Of a stretch of 26,259 nt of DNA, positions 1 to 12,770 are shown piece after piece. The stretch comes from a virus. Lineage: Duplodnaviria; Caudoviricetes. The stretch's first letter is position 1. Each line of letters begins with the position of its first letter. The notes beneath the pieces were generated by a model. It saw nothing but the letters and a program-made list of their open reading frames with translations. It was not told where the DNA came from and did no database searches. A program made the translations under genes and the position numbers. The stretch is from IMG/VR virus record IMGVR_UViG_3300011439_000043, positions 1 through 26,259 of that record. One strand, written 5' to 3'.

Positions 1-2352
1 CACATCCACCTCGTGCGTGGTGGTGTGCGCGGCCGGGTAGTCGGGGAAGAGCGTCGGAGCGTCGACGCCGAGTGCCGCGATCTCGTCGTGCCCATCTGCC
101 GTGCGGAAGTCCCGCCGCATGAAGTCGAGATCGATCCCGTCCGTCTCGCCCGTTCCAGTGCCCTCCAGGCTCGCCGTCGTCGCGAAGCGCGTGCCGTTCA
201 GGCTGAGCTCGCTCGGCGCGTACGGCCGGCGGACGCGATTCGTCATGGCGAACGCGATCGTGATGGCGTCGCCCTCGTCGACGACGTCGGTGGCGGACCT
301 CGGTAGGAGCTTCACGTCGACGTTGTTGCCGGCGGGGACGGTCTCGTCTGAGATCCCGGCGCCCACGAAGACGAGCCAGACGTCCGCGCCCGAAGCGTGA
401 GCCTCCTGCACGGAGTCGAGCACGCCGCGGTAGACGTTCAGAAGTTGCACGTTCGCCCCGCTCGCCTGCGCGCTGCGGCAGAGCAGGAACTCGTTGTCCA
501 CCATGAGCAGCGTCAGAAGGTCGGTCCCGAGCTCGACGAGATCGCTCGAGACGCTCGGGAGCGCATCGAGAAGCGTCGCCTGCGTGTCGGGGGTTGGGAC
601 GATCGTGAGCGACGCCGCCGGGTACGCAGACCCGACTGGGAGCGCGCCGGAGAGCTCGCCCAGGAACGCGAACCCCCACACCTCGCCAACCTCGGAGAAC
701 GCGCCGCCTGGCGTGCCAACAGCGTGGCGCTCCATGACCCTGAACGTGACCTCAACGCCTTGCTTGCGCGCGAAGGCAAAAAGCTTGTCCGCGTCCGCCG
801 TGGTGGCGAACGGATCGCGGTAGGTGAGTGCCCGAGGCGCTTCGAAGGCCTCCTGCTGATCAGCCGGAAACTCCACGAGCTCGTCTGCCGGCGGACCCCA
901 GCCCGAGTCGCCTGGCGGACCAAAGGTTCCAGCAGCCGCGCGAAAAACGTCCTGCACGACGTCGAGAACAATTCGACCGTCAGCGAGCTCCCCCAGGTCC
1001 GCGCGCTTCACGCGCACGGGCATGCGAATCACACCGAGGTCCTCGTCGGTCAGCGCGAACACGTCGCTTGGGTGCACGAGATAAAAGGTGCGGTCCACGA
1101 CGAGCTGCATCTGCGCGAGCGGGTAGGCGAGCGTGCGGATCTCCCGCCACGCAATCGCGTCCGCGAGCGCCTTGTCCTTCACGCCAGGGTAGGACTCGGT
1201 CGCGGAGACGTTGGCCCCTCCCTGGATGCGCACGTTCGCCATGTCCTGGGCGAAGCCGAACGCCTGCTTGTATTCGTCGGTGCGCTGGTGGAACTCGATG
1301 CGGAGTTGGTTGGTCGTTCCCTCCCAGGTGCTCCGCGTGAAACTTCGGATCTCGAGGATGTTCGACGCGTCGAGCTCTGGGATCAGGTCGACGTCGTAGT
1401 CGTCGCGCGCGAGCGCCATCTCCCATTTGCCGCTGACCTGGTTGAAGAAGATCACGCCATCGGCCTGCTTCTCGAGCATCTCGATCAGCTCCTCCGCCTC
1501 GATTGGCCGATCGAGAATCATGGAGAAGCCGTTTCCCTCCGAGGCGAGCACGAGCGCCTTCGTGGTGAAGTTGGTTGTGTTGATCTCCGCCGGATCGATC
1601 GAGAGGCCCCAATTCGTGTTCGTCATCGTTTCGAGGATGACATTCATGATGTTGGCGTCGTTGCCGCCATTCAGCGCAGCGTTCGCCATCGTGAGACCAA
1701 GCCCGTTCGGGATGCGACGGAGCTCGAACTTCCACGGCTTGATCGACGTGCTGTTGCCAACGTAGGTCGGCTCGGTATCCGGCGCGACGTAGCACTCGCC
1801 GTTGTATCCGGGAGTGTCCCCGATCTCCGGAGGCTCCTTCTGAAACTGCGAGAGGTAGCTCGAGGGAGCCTGCGTGAGCGAGCCTGCGTGGAACCTGAGC
1901 GTGCCGATCACGCCGCCGTTCCCGAGCTTGTCGCCGCCGAAGAGCTCGGGCTCGTCGATCGTGAAGGTGTCGCCGTCCTCGAGCAGGCCTTCGAAGACAC
2001 GCTTCTCGCCAATCCAGACGCCGAGCATTTGCACGTCCGGTCCGCGGCAGAGCGCCTGCTGGATTCCGAGCGAGTACTTGAAGCCAACGGTCTGATTCTC
2101 CGAGGAGAAGAGCCCGGTCTTCACCTTGTGCGTGATCGGGACCTGGCGCAGATCGCCCCACCAGGTGACGTTCGGGCCCTTCTGCATGCACGTGCCCCAG
2201 AGCAGCGGCACGACACGCCCCTCGGACGCAGTGGGGAACTGGAAGTCGCCGATGCCGGCGGGCTTTGCGTCCTCGAGCTCGGGCTTCGGAGTCAGGAGGT
2301 CCGTCAGCACGAAGAGTGCTGCGTAGACGAAGAACATCAGCCAGAAGCCCAT
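1..2352 (-). CDS. Tail tip / central tail hub protein (lambda gpJ-like, putative phage tail protein), 3' end outside window
   Basis: ATG at 2352 overlaps the TGA of the endonuclease gene. I translated both ends by hand: MGFWLMFFVYAALFVLTDLLTPKPELEDAKPAGIGDFQFPTASEGRVVPLLWGTCMQKGPNVTWWGDLRQV...VGFKYSLGIQQALCRG, and ...APTLFPDYPAAHTTTHEVDV at position 1 in the same frame. It is absent from the ORF track, consistent with no stop before the edge (784 codons). Motifs and position after a gpL-like gene fit siphovirus tail-tip proteins. Confidence 0.85.
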   Translation of the reverse strand, partial: MGFWLMFFVYAALFVLTDLLTPKPELEDAKPAGIGDFQFPTASEGRVVPLLWGTCMQKGPNVTWWGDLRQVPITHKVKTGLFSSENQTVGFKYSLGIQQALCRGPDVQMLGVWIGEKRVFEGLLEDGDTFTIDEPELFGGDKLGNGGVIGTLRFHAGSLTQAPSSYLSQFQKEPPEIGDTPGYNGECYVAPDTEPTYVGNSTSIKPWKFELRRIPNGLGLTMANAALNGGNDANIMNVILETMTNTNWGLSIDPAEINTTNFTTKALVLASEGNGFSMILDRPIEAEELIEMLEKQADGVIFFNQVSGKWEMALARDDYDVDLIPELDASNILEIRSFTRSTWEGTTNQLRIEFHQRTDEYKQAFGFAQDMANVRIQGGANVSATESYPGVKDKALADAIAWREIRTLAYPLAQMQLVVDRTFYLVHPSDVFALTDEDLGVIRMPVRVKRADLGELADGRIVLDVVQDVFRAAAGTFGPPGDSGWGPPADELVEFPADQQEAFEAPRALTYRDPFATTADADKLFAFARKQGVEVTFRVMERHAVGTPGGAFSEVGEVWGFAFLGELSGALPVGSAYPAASLTIVPTPDTQATLLDALPSVSSDLVELGTDLLTLLMVDNEFLLCRSAQASGANVQLLNVYRGVLDSVQEAHASGADVWLVFVGAGISDETVPAGNNVDVKLLPRSATDVVDEGDAITIAFAMTNRVRRPYAPSELSLNGTRFATTASLEGTGTGETDGIDLDFMRRDFRTADGHDEIAALGVDAPTLFPDYPAAHTTTHEVDV

Positions 2353-2758
2353 CAGTCGATTCCTAGAAACCGCTCGAGGTATTCAGCAGCCAGGCGCAGG
2401 AGCCGTGGATTGCTGCGGAAGTATCCAAGTGCACGATTGCAGCGCGAGCAAAGAAGGCCGCGTATCCGATTTGTTTCGTGGCAATGATCAATATGCAGCG
2501 TTTCCGGGAATGCTCCGCGCGGCGATTTGTTCGGAGGATCGCCGCAGACGTCGCAAGCACCTTCCTGCGCTAGACGCCGCAGCTCTTTGTATTGATCGAT
2601 GGCTAGTCCAAGTTGGCGCGCGCGATGTCGGTCGCTTATAGTTCTCCGATGCGCGCGGAGCGCCTCTTCGCTCATGCCGCGGATCTCTCTGGCGGCAACC
2701 CGGCGATGGCTGTGTTTTGATCCTTTCTTCGGTCCGCGCTTTGCCATTAGTCGATTCC
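2349..2758 (-). repeat. 15-bp imperfect direct repeats (2349-2363 and 2744-2758) flanking the endonuclease VII gene
   Basis: Minus strand GGAATCGACTAATGG versus GGAATCGACTGATGG (14/15 identical). Each copy encodes GID-stop plus an overlapping ATG. Confidence 0.85.
2352..2747 (-). CDS. Endonuclease VII-family (His-Me finger) protein, probable free-standing homing endonuclease
   Basis: CDVC...LHIDHCHETNRIRGLLCSRCNRALG...LLRLAAEYL is the endonuclease VII-domain signature. Basic N-terminus, visibly more AT-rich than the flanks, and located between two tail genes. Confidence 0.9.
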   Translation of the reverse strand: MAKRGPKKGSKHSHRRVAAREIRGMSEEALRAHRRTISDRHRARQLGLAIDQYKELRRLAQEGACDVCGDPPNKSPRGAFPETLHIDHCHETNRIRGLLCSRCNRALGYFRSNPRLLRLAAEYLERFLGID

Positions 2759-6273: not shown

Positions 6274-7887
6274 TCAGTCCTCCCGCATCGCGCAGAAGCT
6301 ATACGTCTGGATGCGGTTCCCGTTCTGGAAGAGCCTGTAGCGATTCGTCCCGACGAGGATGTCGTCCTCGGAGGACTGACCGCTCGCCGCGGAAGTCCAG
6401 TAGAGCCCGTCGATCTCCCCCACCTTGACGTTCTTCTGGGGAACCACGGAGCTGTCGGTTCGCAGCACGATCGCCGGAACCAGGATGTCAACGTCGGTTC
6501 CGGTGTTCGGTGTCGGGTAGACAGAGAGCGCGCCGCCAGAATCATTGAAGAGGATCGCGTCCCAGTTGAAAGCGTCGCCGCCGTCCGACGTGATTGTGTC
6601 CTCGGTTGCGAGGTTCGGGCCGCCGCGGAACATCGGATACACGCCGTTGTCGTCGTTCGACGTTCCGCCCGGCGTGACCGTCAACGTGGTGTCGCTCGCG
6701 ATGGACGCGTTTCGGATCGTGCTCCAGTAGGATCCGTCCGGCCACCAGAGCACCGCTCCCCCGCTGCTCACGCGGAAGATGCACTCGGTGAGGCCCGAGA
6801 TAATTCCGGTCGTGTCCGCGAAGTAGCCGGTGTTCCGATTGGTGGAGCCTGCGATGTACAGCGGGTAGTTGAACTCGGTCGTCGTGCCGAGCTGATTCAG
6901 AAGACCAAGGTGCCAGGGGACGTAGTAGGTCGTCGATGCCGTCTGCACCTTCGCCTCGCCCATGATTCGACGGCCAGTCGCGCTGATCCACCAGGTGATG
7001 TTAAACGCTGTCGTGTCCTTCAGCGGAACGAAGACGCCGAGGTTTCCGGCGATGATCGAGCCGTCCGCTGCGAGCCCGGGGCTCATGTCGTTCTGCTCGT
7101 GGAAGGCCTGCGTGTCGTCGAACGCGGTCATCCCGAACAGTGCCCAGTTGAAAGTCGTAATCGCACCAGTGCTGTTAAGGCCCTGCCAGAGCTTGATCCC
7201 GACGATCGGGTCGACAGCGCCGCCCGCGGTTCCCGTGAGGATCGCGAGCATGTTGTCCTGCGTGGTCGCGTTCCCCCACGTGACCGTGAGCGTTGCTCCG
7301 GTGCCAGCGCCGCCCGTCGTCGCCGCCGGGTTGGTGGGGACCTTCTCGTAGTTGCCGGCAGTGGAGAGCGTCACGGTCGCGACGGAGCCGCCACCTCCAA
7401 GGGTCGCTACCTGGAAGACGGCCGCCACGCCGCCGTGGCCCTGTACCCCTCCGTCGAGAACGACCGTGAGCAGGTTCCCGACCGAGTAGCCCGAGCCGCC
7501 GGCTGCGACGACGGCGCTCACCGCCTGCTGCGTGCGCATCTCGGTCGACCAGCCCGTCGCCGCGAAGGTGAGGTTCGCCGTTGCTAGCGTCCCGGTACCG
7601 CCGGTGAGCGCGTTGCCGGTCGTCGTCGTCGGATCGACCGTGTACGCGCCACCCCGCCAGATCCGCAGGCTCGTGATGGCGCCACCGCCGCCGACCGTGC
7701 GGACCTCGACCTGCGCGACGTGCGAGAACGTGGCGCCCGTGTTCGTGAGCCCGAGCACGTCTCCGACCACGTAGCCCGAGCCGCCTGCGTTGACTGCGAC
7801 CGTGGCGAGGTGGCGACTCGTGGCCACCTGGATGAGCTGGTTGAATAGATCGCGGTAGTTGGTCGCGGTTCCGCTGTTCCAGGTCAT
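6274..7887 (-). CDS. Virion tail structural protein (537 aa) with two Gly/Thr-rich inserted beta domains
   Basis: First gene after the tape measure (ATGA overlap). Contains YPLYIAGS and GEIDGLYW...SEDDI.VG..RYRLFQN motifs and two GGSGY-containing repeats. Confidence 0.78.
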   Translation of the reverse strand: MTWNSGTATNYRDLFNQLIQVATSRHLATVAVNAGGSGYVVGDVLGLTNTGATFSHVAQVEVRTVGGGGAITSLRIWRGGAYTVDPTTTTGNALTGGTGTLATANLTFAATGWSTEMRTQQAVSAVVAAGGSGYSVGNLLTVVLDGGVQGHGGVAAVFQVATLGGGGSVATVTLSTAGNYEKVPTNPAATTGGAGTGATLTVTWGNATTQDNMLAILTGTAGGAVDPIVGIKLWQGLNSTGAITTFNWALFGMTAFDDTQAFHEQNDMSPGLAADGSIIAGNLGVFVPLKDTTAFNITWWISATGRRIMGEAKVQTASTTYYVPWHLGLLNQLGTTTEFNYPLYIAGSTNRNTGYFADTTGIISGLTECIFRVSSGGAVLWWPDGSYWSTIRNASIASDTTLTVTPGGTSNDDNGVYPMFRGGPNLATEDTITSDGGDAFNWDAILFNDSGGALSVYPTPNTGTDVDILVPAIVLRTDSSVVPQKNVKVGEIDGLYWTSAASGQSSEDDILVGTNRYRLFQNGNRIQTYSFCAMRED

Positions 7888-10800
7888 CCGGTGATCCCTT
7901 TCACGCTCCGCCGGTGCTTGCGGATCACGTTCAGAACAGCCTGCTGCCCGGCCTCGGACTCGATACCCGAGGGGATCTCGTCTGGGTCGGAGACGTTGAC
8001 GATGTTCACCTTGGCAGGCGGTGCACTCACGTTGACGATCGGGGCCTGCTGCTGCGCACCAAGGATCGCTGCCGTCTCGCCGGCGGGAACGATCTTCCCG
8101 TCGCTCGGCGCGGTGAAGAGCTCGCGCCCGCGCTCGCCCACCACGTAGGTCTCGCCCTTCTCGACGGGGCCGCCGTGCTGCTTGCCCGCGAAGGCTCCGA
8201 AGAACGCCGTGCCGGCACTCGCGCCGCCTCCGGTGAACGCATCGAGCAGCGCGATCAGTGCCTTTTGCGCGAGCAGCCTCCCGAGGTCCTGGAGCAGGCT
8301 GATCGTGAACTCCTTGAAGCGGTCCTCGCCGGTGACCGCGAACTCGACGATCGCGGCACCTGCCTGCTGGAAGCCGTTCTTTGCGAAGTCGGCGAAAACC
8401 GAGGTCGACTTGGCCGTCTCGTCCTGCTTCAGGCGCAACGCCTCCAGCGCCGCCGCATACTCGTAGATGTTCAACGCCCCGGTGAGGAACGCCTTGCCAA
8501 GTGCCATCTGGTCGAGCTTGTACTGCTGCTGCGGCCCGCGCAGGCTCTCCAGGAGCTGGCCCTGGTGCTCGAGCGCCTGGAGGTTCTCGAGCCGCGTGCG
8601 CAGAGCCTCCCGCTCCGCCGGCTCGAGCGCGATGCCGTCCTCGCGGAGGTCACGCTCGATGGAGAGCAACTCGACCTCCACCGCGCGCGCGTCGTTCGTC
8701 ATGCCGAGCAGGCGCTGCTGCTCGTCGAGCGCGTCGTTGACCTGCATCAGTGCGTTGGCGCGCTTCTCCTCCGGCGACGCCGCCGCGAGCTCGGCAATCT
8801 GCGCACGCACATTTCCGATCGCGTTCGCGTACTCAGTGTCCGTGATGGTGCGCTCCTTGTGGAGCTCCTCCAGAATCCGCTCGCGCGCTGTGAGCTCCTC
8901 GATCGGGCCCTTGATCTCGCGCAGGACCTCGGCGCGCAGGAGATCCGCTTCGAGGGCTTTCTGGCTCTCCGCGATCAGGTCGCGCAGGCTCTGCACGCTC
9001 GACCCGAGATCCGGCCCTTCCGCCTGGCCGGGTACCGCGATCTTCGCCAGGTCGACTCCATCGGCGTTCGCCGCGAGATCGGCGATGGCCTTGTTGAACT
9101 CCTCCGTGGTGATCGTGCCCGCCTTGAGCAGCGCCTGCGCGGCTGCGAGCTTCGCGGTGAACTCCTCCTGGGGGCCGCGAAGCATGTCGAGGATCCCGGC
9201 TTGGTCCTCCAGGACCTGGTTGCGGCGCAGGAGGTCCTCGATCTCCTTCTTCTGCTCGGGATTGAGCGTCGCCCCGTCCTTCTCGATCGCCGCGATTCGC
9301 GCAAGCAGCGCCGCCTGAACCTCGCGCTCGCGGTTTGACTTCTGGAGGAGAACGGCGTCCTGCTTCAGCTTCTCGATCGTCTTGCCAAACTCGGAGTTTG
9401 CCTCCGCGAGCGCCTCGCGCTGCTTGCGAGCCGCCTCGCGCGCTGCCGCGGTGTTCAGCTTGAGCGCGTCCTGTTTCTTGATCAGCTCCGCGATCTGCGC
9501 CGCGTACCGATCCCGAATGCGGATGTTTTCGGCGTCGACCTTGCCAGTTTCTGCGAACGACCGATCGATCTCCGTCTGCACTCGGGCTGCGACACCCTGC
9601 AGGCGCGTGATGTCCGCGCCGACCTTGGCAAAGTCGCTCAGGCCAATCTTCGCGCCCTTTTGCATCGCCTCCTGGCTGTCCCTGACGAGATCCAGGTACT
9701 CGTCGAGTTTGCGAAGCGCCACCACCGCAGCCGCGGCGCTCGCGATCAGGATCAGGAACGGGCTCACCTTGAACTGCTGATGCATCAGCTTGTAGGCAAG
9801 CGTCGTCTTCGTCGTCGCAAGGGCGAGCTTCGCCTTCGCTGCCGCAGCCACCGCTTCCGCCGCAGCGTTCTCTACCTCGAGGGCTGTGAGCTGCTTCGTT
9901 GTGGCCGCCTGAACGACGGCGTTGGCCGTTGCCTGTTTCGACGCGGCGATCTCGGCTTCCAGGGCAACCGTCGCGGACGAGCGCGCCGTCGTAACCGATT
10001 GGGCCGCGATCGCCGCGCGTTCCTCAGCGGCCGTGAGCGCGGTTGTCGCCGCGATGTGCTCTTCTTCGAGGACAGTGAGCCGGCCGAGCGTCGTCGCGTG
10101 GGGGGTATAGACCGCCCCGAGCGCCGCGCCAGTCTTTGCCGCCTCGGCTTGGGCGACAGCGAGAGCGTTTGTTGCAACAGCGCTCTCCGCCTCGAGAATC
10201 GCGATCCGCTCCGCGGCGAGAACCCTGGCAGCGTCCGCCGCGCTCCGCTCGGTGACCACCAGCGCATTTGCCGCCTGGGCCCTCGTGCTCGCGAGCACCC
10301 CTGCTGTGTGCTCGGCTGCAGCCTCGGCAGCGTGGAACTCCTCGAGAGCCAACAGGCGCGCCGCCTCTGCGGATCCGAGCATGACCGCCTTCCCTGCAAC
10401 GACGGCCTGGCTCATCTGCAGGAAGTTGCTCGCCGCCGTTGCCGAGTCGGTGATGATCGGAGTGAGCTTGATCGCCGCCACTCCGCCAGCCAGGAGCAGC
10501 GCCGCGTTCGCTGCGTCGTCGATGTTGTCGGCAAGCACGAGGATCGCACTCGACACGCCAGCGCTCGCACCCTTCGACTCATTCATCTCGCCGACGAACT
10601 GCACCAGGTTGTTACGCAGCACCGTGAAGGACTGGCTGATGGTCGGAACGCTCTTCGCGAAGCGCCCCTCGAGCTCCTCGCGCGCGCCCTTGAAGGCGTC
10701 GAGAACGATGTCGGCGGTGATCTTCCCCTCTGCGCCGAGCTGGCGGAGCTCGCCGCGGGTGATCCCCATGCTCTTCGAGATGACGTCCGCCACCACAGGG

Positions 10801-11312
10801 AGCTGCTCGAGGACCGATCGAAGCTCGTCGCCGCGAAGGGCTCCCGACGCAAGACCCTGGGAGAGCTGTATCAGGCCGGCGCGCGCCTCGTCCGCGCTCG
10901 CGCCCGAGAGGATCACGGCCTGGTTCAGGGATTCCGTGAAGCGCAGGAGTTCCAGCTCGGTGCGCCCGAGCTCCTTTGCCGCCAGTCCCACGCGCGAGTA
11001 GACCTCGGCTGTTGCATCAAACGCAGATCGCGTTCGGTCCGCGATGGCGAAGACCTCGTCGGTGACGACTCCGAGCCGTTCCTGGTCATCGGTGACCGTG
11101 CGCAGCCGGTTCTGGACGTTCGTGTATGCGTCGGCGAGCTGGCCGAGCTCGCGCACGAGGATTGCGACGCTCACACCGGTGAGTGCCCGCGCGATCGCGC
11201 CACGCATCTTGTCGGCCTTGTTCTCGACCTGCGTGAGCGATCGCTCAACGGTCGCGATCCCGCGCGGTGCCTGCGCGGGATCGACAATTACATTTATACG
11301 GAAGTCGGTAAT
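7884..11312 (-). CDS. Tail tape measure protein (about 1142 aa if ATT at 11312 is the start; ORF open to GTG at 11339)
   Basis: Tape-measure N-terminal domain (QLSQGLASGALRGDELRSVLEQLP), Ala-rich and coiled-coil middle, C-terminal HGGPV...YVVGERGRELF. A strong SD AAGGAGGT lies at 11324-11317. Confidence 0.93.
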   Translation of the reverse strand: MTDFRINVIVDPAQAPRGIATVERSLTQVENKADKMRGAIARALTGVSVAILVRELGQLADAYTNVQNRLRTVTDDQERLGVVTDEVFAIADRTRSAFDATAEVYSRVGLAAKELGRTELELLRFTESLNQAVILSGASADEARAGLIQLSQGLASGALRGDELRSVLEQLPVVADVISKSMGITRGELRQLGAEGKITADIVLDAFKGAREELEGRFAKSVPTISQSFTVLRNNLVQFVGEMNESKGASAGVSSAILVLADNIDDAANAALLLAGGVAAIKLTPIITDSATAASNFLQMSQAVVAGKAVMLGSAEAARLLALEEFHAAEAAAEHTAGVLASTRAQAANALVVTERSAADAARVLAAERIAILEAESAVATNALAVAQAEAAKTGAALGAVYTPHATTLGRLTVLEEEHIAATTALTAAEERAAIAAQSVTTARSSATVALEAEIAASKQATANAVVQAATTKQLTALEVENAAAEAVAAAAKAKLALATTKTTLAYKLMHQQFKVSPFLILIASAAAAVVALRKLDEYLDLVRDSQEAMQKGAKIGLSDFAKVGADITRLQGVAARVQTEIDRSFAETGKVDAENIRIRDRYAAQIAELIKKQDALKLNTAAAREAARKQREALAEANSEFGKTIEKLKQDAVLLQKSNREREVQAALLARIAAIEKDGATLNPEQKKEIEDLLRRNQVLEDQAGILDMLRGPQEEFTAKLAAAQALLKAGTITTEEFNKAIADLAANADGVDLAKIAVPGQAEGPDLGSSVQSLRDLIAESQKALEADLLRAEVLREIKGPIEELTARERILEELHKERTITDTEYANAIGNVRAQIAELAAASPEEKRANALMQVNDALDEQQRLLGMTNDARAVEVELLSIERDLREDGIALEPAEREALRTRLENLQALEHQGQLLESLRGPQQQYKLDQMALGKAFLTGALNIYEYAAALEALRLKQDETAKSTSVFADFAKNGFQQAGAAIVEFAVTGEDRFKEFTISLLQDLGRLLAQKALIALLDAFTGGGASAGTAFFGAFAGKQHGGPVEKGETYVVGERGRELFTAPSDGKIVPAGETAAILGAQQQAPIVNVSAPPAKVNIVNVSDPDEIPSGIESEAGQQAVLNVIRKHRRSVKGITG

Positions 11313-11893
11313 TTCGACCTCCTTTGCTTCCAAGCACACACCGCAGCAGCGCTCATGTTCCTTCGACTATCCTCACTCGCCGAAGGCCGACCACTTTGCC
11401 ATGCGCTCATCTTGGCGCGGGCCTCATCCGAGTGCTTCGATCCAATCCTCGCCAGGCGAGACGCCGCCAGCGTTTCGGGCGATGGCGCACGACCGCGGTG
11501 CGCCGCACTCATTTTCTCGCGTGTCTCAAAGCTGTGCTTCTTGCCGAGCTTTGCTGCGCGCATCTTCTTCCGGGTCTCCTCGTGCGGGGACGACCTACTG
11601 CCCCCCTCTCGGAGGTTGTACCCGTGCGGACTCCTTGTCCCAAGCGCGACGATTGCCTTCGGCTCGATCTTGTTCAGGTAGTCCCAGTCCGCGAGGAGCA
11701 TCGTCTCCATTCGAAACGATGCTCTTCCGTACTTCCGGATCGCAGCGGCGAGGTGGCTCCGCCCGCCGCGCATAGCATGGCCAACGTGATCGCTCCATCG
11801 ACGACCGAGACTGCGGCAGGTAATGCCGACGTACCGCTTTCCACTCGGCGCTGTGACGAGGTATAGCCGTCCAGGCTTCTTAGAATCCGTCAC
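11294..11893 (-). CDS. GIY-YIG homing endonuclease with NUMOD3 repeats (about 199 aa)
   Basis: GRLYLVT...KRYVGIT..SLGRRWSDH...AIRKYG...E...GYNLREGG catalytic domain, then NUMOD3-like repeats (HEETRKKMRAAKLG, HSFETREKMSAAHRG, HSDEARAKMSAWQSG). GTG start at 11893 overlaps the TGA of the chaperone GT frame. Confidence 0.92.
   Translation of the reverse strand: MTDSKKPGRLYLVTAPSGKRYVGITCRSLGRRWSDHVGHAMRGGRSHLAAAIRKYGRASFRMETMLLADWDYLNKIEPKAIVALGTRSPHGYNLREGGSRSSPHEETRKKMRAAKLGKKHSFETREKMSAAHRGRAPSPETLAASRLARIGSKHSDEARAKMSAWQSGRPSASEDSRRNMSAAAVCAWKQRRSKLPTSV
11317..11324 (-). promoter_or_regulatory. Strong Shine-Dalgarno sequence for the tape measure gene, inside the 3' end of the GIY-YIG gene
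   Basis: Minus strand AAAGGAGGT-CGAA-ATT ACC GAC TTC; the GGAGG core is 5 nt from an in-frame ATT. Confidence 0.7.
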
Positions 11894-12312
11894 CGCCGTC
11901 TGCCGCCTGCGCGTCGCTTCACCTTGCGATCGCCTCCGGGCACGGGCTTCTTGACGCCGCCGCCCTCCATGGATCGGGCCGATCGCTTGTACTCGTTCGA
12001 CTGCCACTCCATGTACCCGCCGTCCATGAGATGAATGATCGTCCAGAACGGCCCGATCATATCGGCGTCAAGGCCCGCCTTCGACGCGTAGTCGATCGCG
12101 CGGCTCCAGGGGATCCATCCGAGAACCTGCCCAACGCTGCGCTCGGTGGACAGGCTCCAGAATGCGCGAAGGTAGAAACCCTCTCCCGGAAGGATCTCGG
12201 GCTCGTCCACGTACCAGTCGGGTGGCTCGCGGCCCTTCTTGGCCCCCTCCTCCACCGACCAACCGTCGCGGAGGTATCGGAGCTCCCAGAGGAGCCGCGC
12301 CCTCAGTTTCCC
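11890..12312 (-). CDS. Tail assembly chaperone, gpT-like portion, expressed as a G-T fusion (about 293 aa from 12770) by -1 frameshift
   Basis: The -1 frame relative to gpG reads GKLRARLLWELRY...FYLRAFWSLSTERSVGQVLGWIPWSRAIDYA...IIHLMDGGYMEW. It lies between gpG and the tape measure. Confidence 0.85.
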   Translation of the reverse strand, partial: GKLRARLLWELRYLRDGWSVEEGAKKGREPPDWYVDEPEILPGEGFYLRAFWSLSTERSVGQVLGWIPWSRAIDYASKAGLDADMIGPFWTIIHLMDGGYMEWQSNEYKRSARSMEGGGVKKPVPGGDRKVKRRAGGRRR

Positions 12313-12770
12313 GCTTGCTCCACGACCTCCGCGTGGGTGGGCATCTCGGGCTGGATGAAGTTCTCCTGGTCGGCGCAGAAGTTTCGGACCTGCTGGAAGA
12401 TCCACCTCGGGAGTGCCTGGATGTACTCCGCGGCCGCTTTCGAGGAGAACGGCGCGGGCTTGTTCCCGTCTTCGTAGACGTCCTCCCAGCCATCGATCAC
12501 GAACAGGGGGTATAGCCTGAGGTCCTCGTCGAAGTTGTCGTCGAGCACGTCTTGCGGAGTGCGCCCGCCCTTGTACGCCTTCGAGTTTTTCGCGAGCCGT
12601 TTGACGACCTGGTTCCAGAACTCCTTGTTCTCCTCCGTTGCTGGACGAACGATCAGCACCGGGTGCTTGTTCTTCGAACCGGGGGGCGTGTCAAGTTGGC
12701 TGATCTCGAAGCGAGCCGTTGTCTTCCCGTCGATGTGGAGCTTTTTGAGATGCTCGAATCTGCTAACCAT
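12303..12770 (-). CDS. Tail assembly chaperone (gpG-like)
   Basis: 155 aa directly downstream of the tail tube; ends EQAGN* at the slippery site; SD-like AAGGAAG upstream. Confidence 0.88.
   Translation of the reverse strand: MVSRFEHLKKLHIDGKTTARFEISQLDTPPGSKNKHPVLIVRPATEENKEFWNQVVKRLAKNSKAYKGGRTPQDVLDDNFDEDLRLYPLFVIDGWEDVYEDGNKPAPFSSKAAAEYIQALPRWIFQQVRNFCADQENFIQPEMPTHAEVVEQAGN
12306..12312 (-). promoter_or_regulatory. Programmed -1 ribosomal frameshift heptamer G GGA AAC
   Basis: GCG GGA AAC TGA at the end of gpG, in X XXY YYZ form and the correct phase; analogous to lambda G/GT GGGAAAG. Confidence 0.88.

Follow-up and report, generated by a model that had tools for sequence, protein, structure and literature searches.

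Where does a tape measure gene start when a homing-endonuclease gene occupies the place just before it? This question is raised by the stretch of 26,259 nt analysed here (the window), which is the structural module of a long-tailed phage; its minus strand encodes the head, the tail tube, the chaperones G and GT, the tape measure, and the baseplate. Between GT and the tape measure lies a free-standing nuclease gene, and the tape-measure frame, read from 11312, opens with ATT ACC GAC TTC CGT ATA AAT GTA ATT GTC GAT. An earlier note on this DNA had proposed that the nuclease took the native start of the tape measure and supplied a recoded replacement beginning with ATT. This overall interpretation is supported by the present analysis, also by the MTDF/MTQF N-termini in the nuclease clade, by the codon block of a second phage (L209), and by a second Ile-codon start (L051). 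We give a probability of about 0.6 to the joint reading, in which the nuclease would have kept the GT-coupled native start and would carry a protective replacement start and codons, the tape measure being predicted to begin at the ATT. One component, a cassette with a kept native start and a replaced tape-measure start, is highly probable. The features are collected in Table 1.

Table 1. Positions of the features discussed, in window coordinates
Feature	Position	Strand	Basis
Tail assembly chaperone G, 155 aa	12303..12770	-	PHROG 313 tail assembly chaperone, E 7e-7
T part of chaperone GT	11890..12297	-	Pfam Phage_TAC_18, E 8.6e-10
Free-standing GIY-YIG/NUMOD3 homing-endonuclease gene, 199 aa	11294..11893	-	Pfam, PHROG
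GTG ACG GAT T at the nuclease N-terminus (M-T-D-S), probably left over from the native start of the tape measure	11884..11893	-	L169 junction and clade MTDF/MTQF (by inference)
Rival starts: in-frame GTG 11339 (no Shine-Dalgarno, SD) and TTG 11333 (weak GGTG)	11331..11339	-	SD scoring
SD AAGGAGGT inside the last nuclease codons; strongest of 64 junctions	11317..11324	-	SD scoring
RNA hairpin (predicted; 8 bp, with the AUU in a loop of 7 nt) in which the SD pairs with codons 2-5	11300..11322	-	Folding, z -3.08
ATT, predicted tape-measure start codon at the conserved Met position	11310..11312	-	Comparison with relatives
Atypical codons 5-11 (CGT ATA AAT GTA ATT GTC GAT)	11280..11300	-	Codon-adaptation score, allele comparison
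Tape measure protein, 1142 aa counted from ATT, open to the stop	7884..11312	-	Pfam TMP_3, E 8e-64; Tape_meas_lam_C

The GT/tape-measure junction with and without an insert

By analogy with the known G/GT arrangement, the slippery GGGAAAC at 12312-12306 (-) is predicted to give GT via a -1 frameshift. The GT stop TGA (11892-11890, -) overlaps the start of the nuclease gene, which reads GTG ACG GAT TCT from 11893, as had been noticed from the sequence earlier. At the other end, the nuclease ORF (11893-11294) and the tape-measure frame overlap by 19 nt, so that the 5′ end of the tape measure does run into the last nuclease codons, again as first described.

The cultured relatives nearest by T protein (40-43% identity), namely, Roseobacter phage RDJL Phi 1 (Xiamenvirus), Shewanella S0112, Pseudomonas KPP23, Ruegeria Tedan, and Erythrobacter ZS04, have the order tube-G-T-tape measure and a MADFRI-type N-terminus as in the window. 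Unlike in the window, the nuclease is absent from the junction in all five examined, and the tape measure starts with ATG (four) or GTG (one). An insert-free relative, L356, occurs in a Polyangiales bin, which gives a host hint only. Another free-standing nuclease gene (endonuclease VII-like, GC3 0.56) is located at 2352-2747 (-) of the window, between a tail gene and a baseplate-hub-like gene, with a 1-base overlap with each neighbour.

From 355 loci, 64 distinct junctions were obtained as a T match followed by the family N-terminus, with duplicates removed. The set omits, besides these duplicates, the loci lacking a T match, the MATERI-type clade (in which another gene lies between T and the tape measure), L018, L019, and L024-26 (N-termini outside the pattern), and L356-L361 (added later). 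Sixty-one junctions have no insert, two have this nuclease clade, and one has another GIY-YIG gene, that is, presence at this one site is patchy. Among the 61 insert-free alleles, the GT stop falls within -25 to +10 nt of the start in 53, and a 4-nt stop/start overlap is found in 18, 17 of which read x-T-D-F; L169 reads GTG ACG GAC TTC, with the same overlap with the GT stop as the window nuclease. The earlier note had expected such an overlap in relatives lacking the nuclease, and its postulated ancestral junction, M-T-D-F, agrees with these alleles. Across the 64 junctions, tape measures that belong to two different Pfam families share one 12-residue N-terminus, in which P12 is invariant.

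The 10-nt stretch at 11884-11893 matches L169 and the clade N-termini; it has no close empty allele, and an in-frame remnant is absent from L209. No near-identical empty allele was found among the relatives, the best T protein being about 55% and the best tape measure about 70%, so that we infer the insertion point rather than map it. No joint skipping the nuclease was found in the contigs of the eight runs examined, of which X5, X6, and X10 do not cover the site.

Two other junctions deserve description. L003, whose tape measure is the closest to that of the window, has, between GT and the tape measure, a GIY-YIG gene of another, SegE-like kind (L003:2007-2504), with ordinary tape-measure codons, a GTGA overlap, and a similar hairpin; 9 of the 11 bases before its start are like those of the window (AGGAG..CGAA). 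An apparent insert in L305 was rejected as an internal stop in T with no nuclease: the in-frame TAG within the T part of GT (L305:1683-1694) would be an assembly error or a case of read-through.

The nuclease clade and the atypical codon block

The nuclease has two stretches of NUMOD3 (PF07460; E 8.5e-10), its C-terminal DNA-binding repeats as in GIY-YIG homing endonucleases, and falls in PHROG 314 homing endonuclease (E 2e-26). Its Pfam GIY-YIG match (E 4.3e-4, 21 bits) is slightly below the cut-off of 22.6, above which P0008 and P0015 lie. The catalytic residues Y11, Y21, G23, R32, E77, and N93 are invariant across 11 aligned relatives, and the profile matches I-TevI (1mk0; E 0.007), the register near the Glu being uncertain. 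The GC3 of the gene is 0.67 versus about 0.85 for the structural genes, and a search for a sigma-70 promoter of the nuclease gene found none. A slippery-type heptamer, G GGG GGC, occurs at 11606 (-), at the end of the nuclease domain.

In a tree of 57 nuclease domains with the N-terminal tails removed, the window nuclease belongs to a 13-row clade (support 96/91; the bootstrap is not fully settled). Among the 11 clade members having an N-terminus, three (P0008, P0112, and P0015) begin with MTDF/MTQF, as against none of the 242 nucleases outside the clade; for MT[DENQ], the counts are 6 of 11 and 7 of 242. The former tally amounts to about two to three events, since the clade members are kin. 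Two further members begin with MTER or MNERI, resembling another tape-measure clade, and P0006, P0013, P0019, and P0126 show no resemblance to a tape-measure start, or none past M-T. P0112 is a decaying copy, which starts with MTDF and has an internal deletion in the nuclease domain. Clade members were sought in GTDB (10 loci) and in cultured phages (best about 44%), and none was found there.

The context is known for 2 of the 13 members, the window and L209, and only these two lie at the GT/tape-measure junction among 132 nuclease loci. L209 has the order tube-G-T-nuclease-tape measure. Its nuclease starts with MERRG, not MTDF, in a TGATG overlap, and its tape measure starts with GTG and belongs to PhageMin_Tail, versus TMP_3 in the window. 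The two nucleases are 44% identical and share the same codon in 23 of 69 cases, that is, the silent sites are saturated. In L209, a 9-nt direct repeat, out of frame with the nuclease, is present in the nuclease 5′ end (1933-1941) and across the tape-measure start codon (2509-2517); it is possibly a start duplication or a chance repeat.

The first tape-measure codons had been described as AT-rich and recoded. This holds for codons 5-11, whose codon-adaptation score is below those of all 6936 seven-codon windows of the window's genes; codons 2-4 are ordinary. For codons 6-10 (11297-11283, -), L209 agrees with the window at 14 of 15 bases, more than any other of the 63 alleles, as against a background of 11 of 54 cases in which L209 shares the A/T-ending codons of the window in four other genes. 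The pattern GAYTTYCGNATANNNGTAATTGTC matches three contigs of two phages (the window's and L209) in the 2.9 million viral contigs of IMG/VR, all with this nuclease. Among the insert-free alleles with GC3 of at least 0.7, ATA is found at codon 6 in 2 of 33, GTA at codon 8 in 4 of 32, and ATT at codon 9 in 3 of 28. The nuclease stop TAA (11296-11294, -) lies inside the block. Directly after it, an ATG-TAA start-stop is found at 11293-11288 (-), and the identical six bases are present in the block of L209.

The block can thus be described as a diverged synonymous copy of the host gene end, present in two unrelated families of tape measures, in both cases together with this nuclease clade and not otherwise (n = 2). 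It looks selected in its carriers, because the silent sites of their nucleases are scrambled to the extent given above. The simplest reason would be a putative self-immunity, for which we see even odds. This would name codons 5-11 of the conserved N-terminus as the likely target, which makes cleavage and immunity directly testable. Alternatively, what appears recoded may be an import from a lower-GC donor, or the A/T-rich codons and the +1-frame stops may be kept to aid translation from a weak, buried start. Insert-free L187 (47% GC) matches the block at 13 of 15 bases, and insert-free, high-GC L136 (TTG start, no nuclease) has five A/T-ending codons in codons 5-11; AT-richness alone is therefore not specific. 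The GC3 of the nuclease gene itself and the presence of its stop in the block also fit a donor leftover or a translational role. However, L209 has the same bases with a GTG start and a nuclease that stops earlier in another frame, and a neutral block should have been lost between nucleases so diverged. Overall, we regard a translational or leftover origin as unlikely.

The nuclease might also be an ordinary intergenic gene upstream of an intact tape-measure start, with M-T-D as its own inherited N-terminus and nothing replaced in this lineage. Such an entry is compatible with the GTG-A, which is forced by the overlap, with the family-typical tape-measure codons 2-4, and with the 11 nt before the start in L003, which are similar with another nuclease. 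On the other hand, it leaves aside the restriction of MTDF/MTQF to the clade, the block shared with L209, and the GT end, which looks native: the window T ends in ...AGGRRR*, and the T of insert-free L356 in ...RAGRRR* with an ATGA overlap onto MTDFRI. Intergenic entry is accordingly rated as improbable.

The ATT codon as the predicted tape-measure start

The ATT is identical in L001, L002, and L174 and in contigs bridging the site from runs X1, X2, X3, and X7 (4 of the 8 runs examined, of 10 listed), where the window may itself stem from X1 and X2 and the samples may be of one campaign; X4 covers the site with fewer than 31 letters on one side. It is constant where positions 12348 and 12201 vary, and an ATG at 11312-11310, the reading that would have undone the original proposal, appears in no contig. 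As far as contigs, which are all the evidence on this codon, show, ATT is almost certainly the true sequence and no assembly slip.

The well-spaced SD claimed before the ATT was confirmed: AAGGAGGT (11324-11317) lies 4 nt before the ATT at 11312 and contains the sole AAGGAGG on the minus strand of the window. SD strengths were scored with an E. coli-type anti-SD tail, which may differ from that of the host, and the value for the ATT is -11.2 kcal/mol. On this scoring, the start codons of the 64 junctions (49 ATG, 10 GTG, 3 TTG, 1 ATT, and 1 ATA) show mean strengths of -1.8 (ATG), -4.7 (GTG), and -4.5 (TTG); SD strength goes up on average as the start codon weakens. The ATT and ATA starts rank first and second (-11.2 and -9.5), which has a chance of 1 in 2016 if the two are independent.

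The ATA belongs to L051 (2501-2503; same contig as L348), where it is the apparent start behind AAGGAGG in a nuclease-free junction, with an ATAG overlap with the T stop. There is no upstream in-frame start and none downstream before codon 85, in what is one contig only; the protein search that recovered L051 took no account of the start codon. An ATH-start pattern gave five matches: two of the window's phage, one of the L051 contig, and two unrelated chance matches. An internal AUU start occurs in T4 gene 26.

In all 27 other tape-measure database proteins, the conserved Met is the first residue, and the extension MCLEAKEVE, the conservation of which in homologs would have spoken against ATT, occurs in no relative. 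The window thus shows what is looked for in genes with non-canonical starts, that is, an Ile codon at the homologous Met position, a strong SD, and no better start, TTG 11333 being a weaker alternative. From these comparisons, ATT is likely, at the level of prediction, to be the main tape-measure start. A downstream ATG36 was rejected; its SD is -1.7, and the conserved N-terminus would be lost.

The same cassette history could instead have left a tape measure starting at TTG 11333 (or GTG 11339) with a 7-9 residue extension, the ATT being a mutated old start. The earlier note was right that GTG 11339 has no SD (-0.4 kcal/mol), but it missed TTG 11333, a normal start with a weak GGTG at an aligned spacing of 6 and outside the hairpin, which the database gene call (P0259, 1149 aa) takes as the start; a 2-residue extension does exist in L018. 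Against this, the SD of TTG 11333 scores -3.5 versus -11.2 for ATT, the other tape-measure proteins start at the conserved Met, and the Ile-codon start of L051 has no alternative of this kind. Moreover, the range quoted for re-initiation, seven codons (PMC2988022), includes ATT, and TTG 11333, at 13 codons from the nuclease stop, falls beyond it. A start at TTG or GTG is therefore judged to have a small chance.

That the phage or prophage is defective, with the ATT as a harmful mutation that abolishes the tape measure, is very unlikely. ATT is one base from ATG and the samples may be from one site, but the structural genes of the window are open, the tape measure is intact over 1142 codons, the codon stays constant beside variable positions, its SD is the strongest of 64, and L051 offers a parallel. 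Least credible is a nuclease-tape-measure fusion by a -1 frameshift (suggested by the -1 frame of the tape measure relative to the nuclease and the internal SD upstream) or removal of the insert as an intron (as in the spliced tape-measure genes of ICP1; PMC10448857), since the only slippery heptamer is at 11606 and none is near the nuclease end, a 190-aa head would bury the conserved N-terminus, no Rfam intron match was obtained, and the ORF takes up all of the insert. A group I intron or intein was rejected on the same grounds, the ORF having its own stop and being out of frame with the tape measure.

Proposed history and comparison with known systems

Two points are new relative to the earlier proposal: the likely derivation of the ATT from an ATGA overlap by one change, and the folding of the SD into a hairpin. 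The predicted hairpin, matched in stability by 1 of 200 shuffles, is the second most stable of the 64 junctions, L003 being third; it hides the SD and leaves TTG 11333 outside. A terminal Trp motif is present in 12 of 18 relatives listed, and all 12 stop 4-8 residues after it (three at exactly 6). The window nuclease runs 11 residues past the motif and would stop at 6 if TTA (11311-11309) were TGA. The replacement start was therefore likely once an ATGA overlap with the nuclease stop, and judging from the sequence, one G-to-T change likely made both the ATT and five extra nuclease codons to TAA. The ATT is probably a late point change in the window's lineage, since L209 uses GTG. The idea that the cassette brought a replacement start is supported, and the ATT itself is probably not a trait of the cassette.

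In the joint reading favoured here, the nuclease gene would have entered the tape-measure gene a few codons after its start, retaining the native GT-coupled start as its own N-terminus and bringing a substitute for the ribosome site, the start codon, and the coding sequence up to about codon 11. The altered bases of the block would protect the phage from the cut of its own nuclease, which may act on the first codons of empty alleles and be copied in, together with the block, by break repair. The G-to-T change would later have turned the ATGA overlap into ATT and extended the nuclease by five codons to TAA. Ribosomes finishing the nuclease would then melt the hairpin that holds the SD, terminate 16 nt downstream of the ATT, and start anew at the ATT; the low output would suffice for a few-copy protein. 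The nuclease stop does lie 16 nt past the ATT, within the published re-initiation window of seven codons (PMC2988022). Translational coupling of the tape measure to the nuclease, modelled in this way, falls a little short of an even chance in our estimate; coupling would make tape-measure synthesis dependent on nuclease translation, and would provide a mechanism for the persistence of free-standing nucleases once all targets are filled.

Further points against the joint reading are that the other GIY-YIG gene of L003 comes to the same junction with ordinary codons, that the hairpin hides the SD and not TTG 11333, and that for most of the free-standing endonucleases of T4 the cut is hundreds of bases away from the gene (PMC2988022). 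A still wider picture is doubtful. It would have an endonuclease clade specialising on the first codons of tape measures, taking the native start and moving a self-immune replacement start between unrelated tape-measure families; here, the AUU start would be hairpin-locked and opened only by nuclease-finishing ribosomes, so that silencing or loss of the nuclease would mean loss of the tail, and Ile-codon tape-measure starts would have arisen twice in the phage group, missed by gene callers.

AUU/AUA starts are rare in bacteria (PMC5499595), and those with strong SDs give about 10% of AUG output in S. aureus (PMC13009471). The occurrence of ATT and ATA with the two strongest SDs fits the dependence of such starts on strong SDs reported in the latter. 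The E. coli infC and pcnB and the S. aureus cvfC1, ccpN, and citZ likewise combine an Ile-codon start, a strong SD, and low output. Unlike them, the window case concerns an essential phage structural gene, has its start inside the end of another gene, and is predicted, not mapped. The graded link between start weakness and SD strength in the 64 alleles suggests that AUU/AUA starts, which annotation tools mis-call, are usable by essential structural genes of phages.

In the part of the literature covered, no published description was found of a tape measure that starts at ATT or of one whose start is provided by a phage nuclease gene. The free-standing GIY-YIG endonucleases of the T4 type (SegA-G) and the gene-splitting MobE/MobA insertions (PMC2988022) resemble the window in that a promoter-less, intron-less nuclease lies in an operon, with an I-TevI-like domain and a start overlapping the upstream stop. 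However, the Seg enzymes cut far from their own gene, and a MobE/MobA insertion divides its host gene into two parts, each giving a working polypeptide, whereas the window's host gene would stay whole via a new start. The "HEG-islands" at the tail operons and tape measures of ICP1-like phages (PMC10448857) have different nuclease families at the same site beside tail genes, as do the window and L209 versus L003. A difference is that the ICP1 tape measure is repaired by splicing; the terms "start codon", "recoded", and "synonymous" are not mentioned in the main text of that report.

The nearest parallels are fungal mitochondrial endonuclease ORFs that replace gene ends, in atp6 of Allomyces macrogynus and in atp6, atp9, cox2, and nad3 of Glomus, with a GIY-YIG type in atp9 (PMC3630166). 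In these, as in the window, an intron-less endonuclease insert in a conserved gene is accompanied by a copy of the gene end that it displaced, diverged mostly by synonymous changes. The fungal ORFs replace a 3′ end, whereas in the window it is the 5′ end of a phage gene, with a ribosome site, a start codon, and only about 11 codons, and the displaced piece would have become the nuclease's own N-terminus. By this analogy, the window nuclease would work like the fungal gene-end-replacing ORFs, mirrored to the 5′ end, not being a member of them. Splicing and gene splitting are two means by which phages live through the arrival of a nuclease in an essential gene; the case of the window would add a third.
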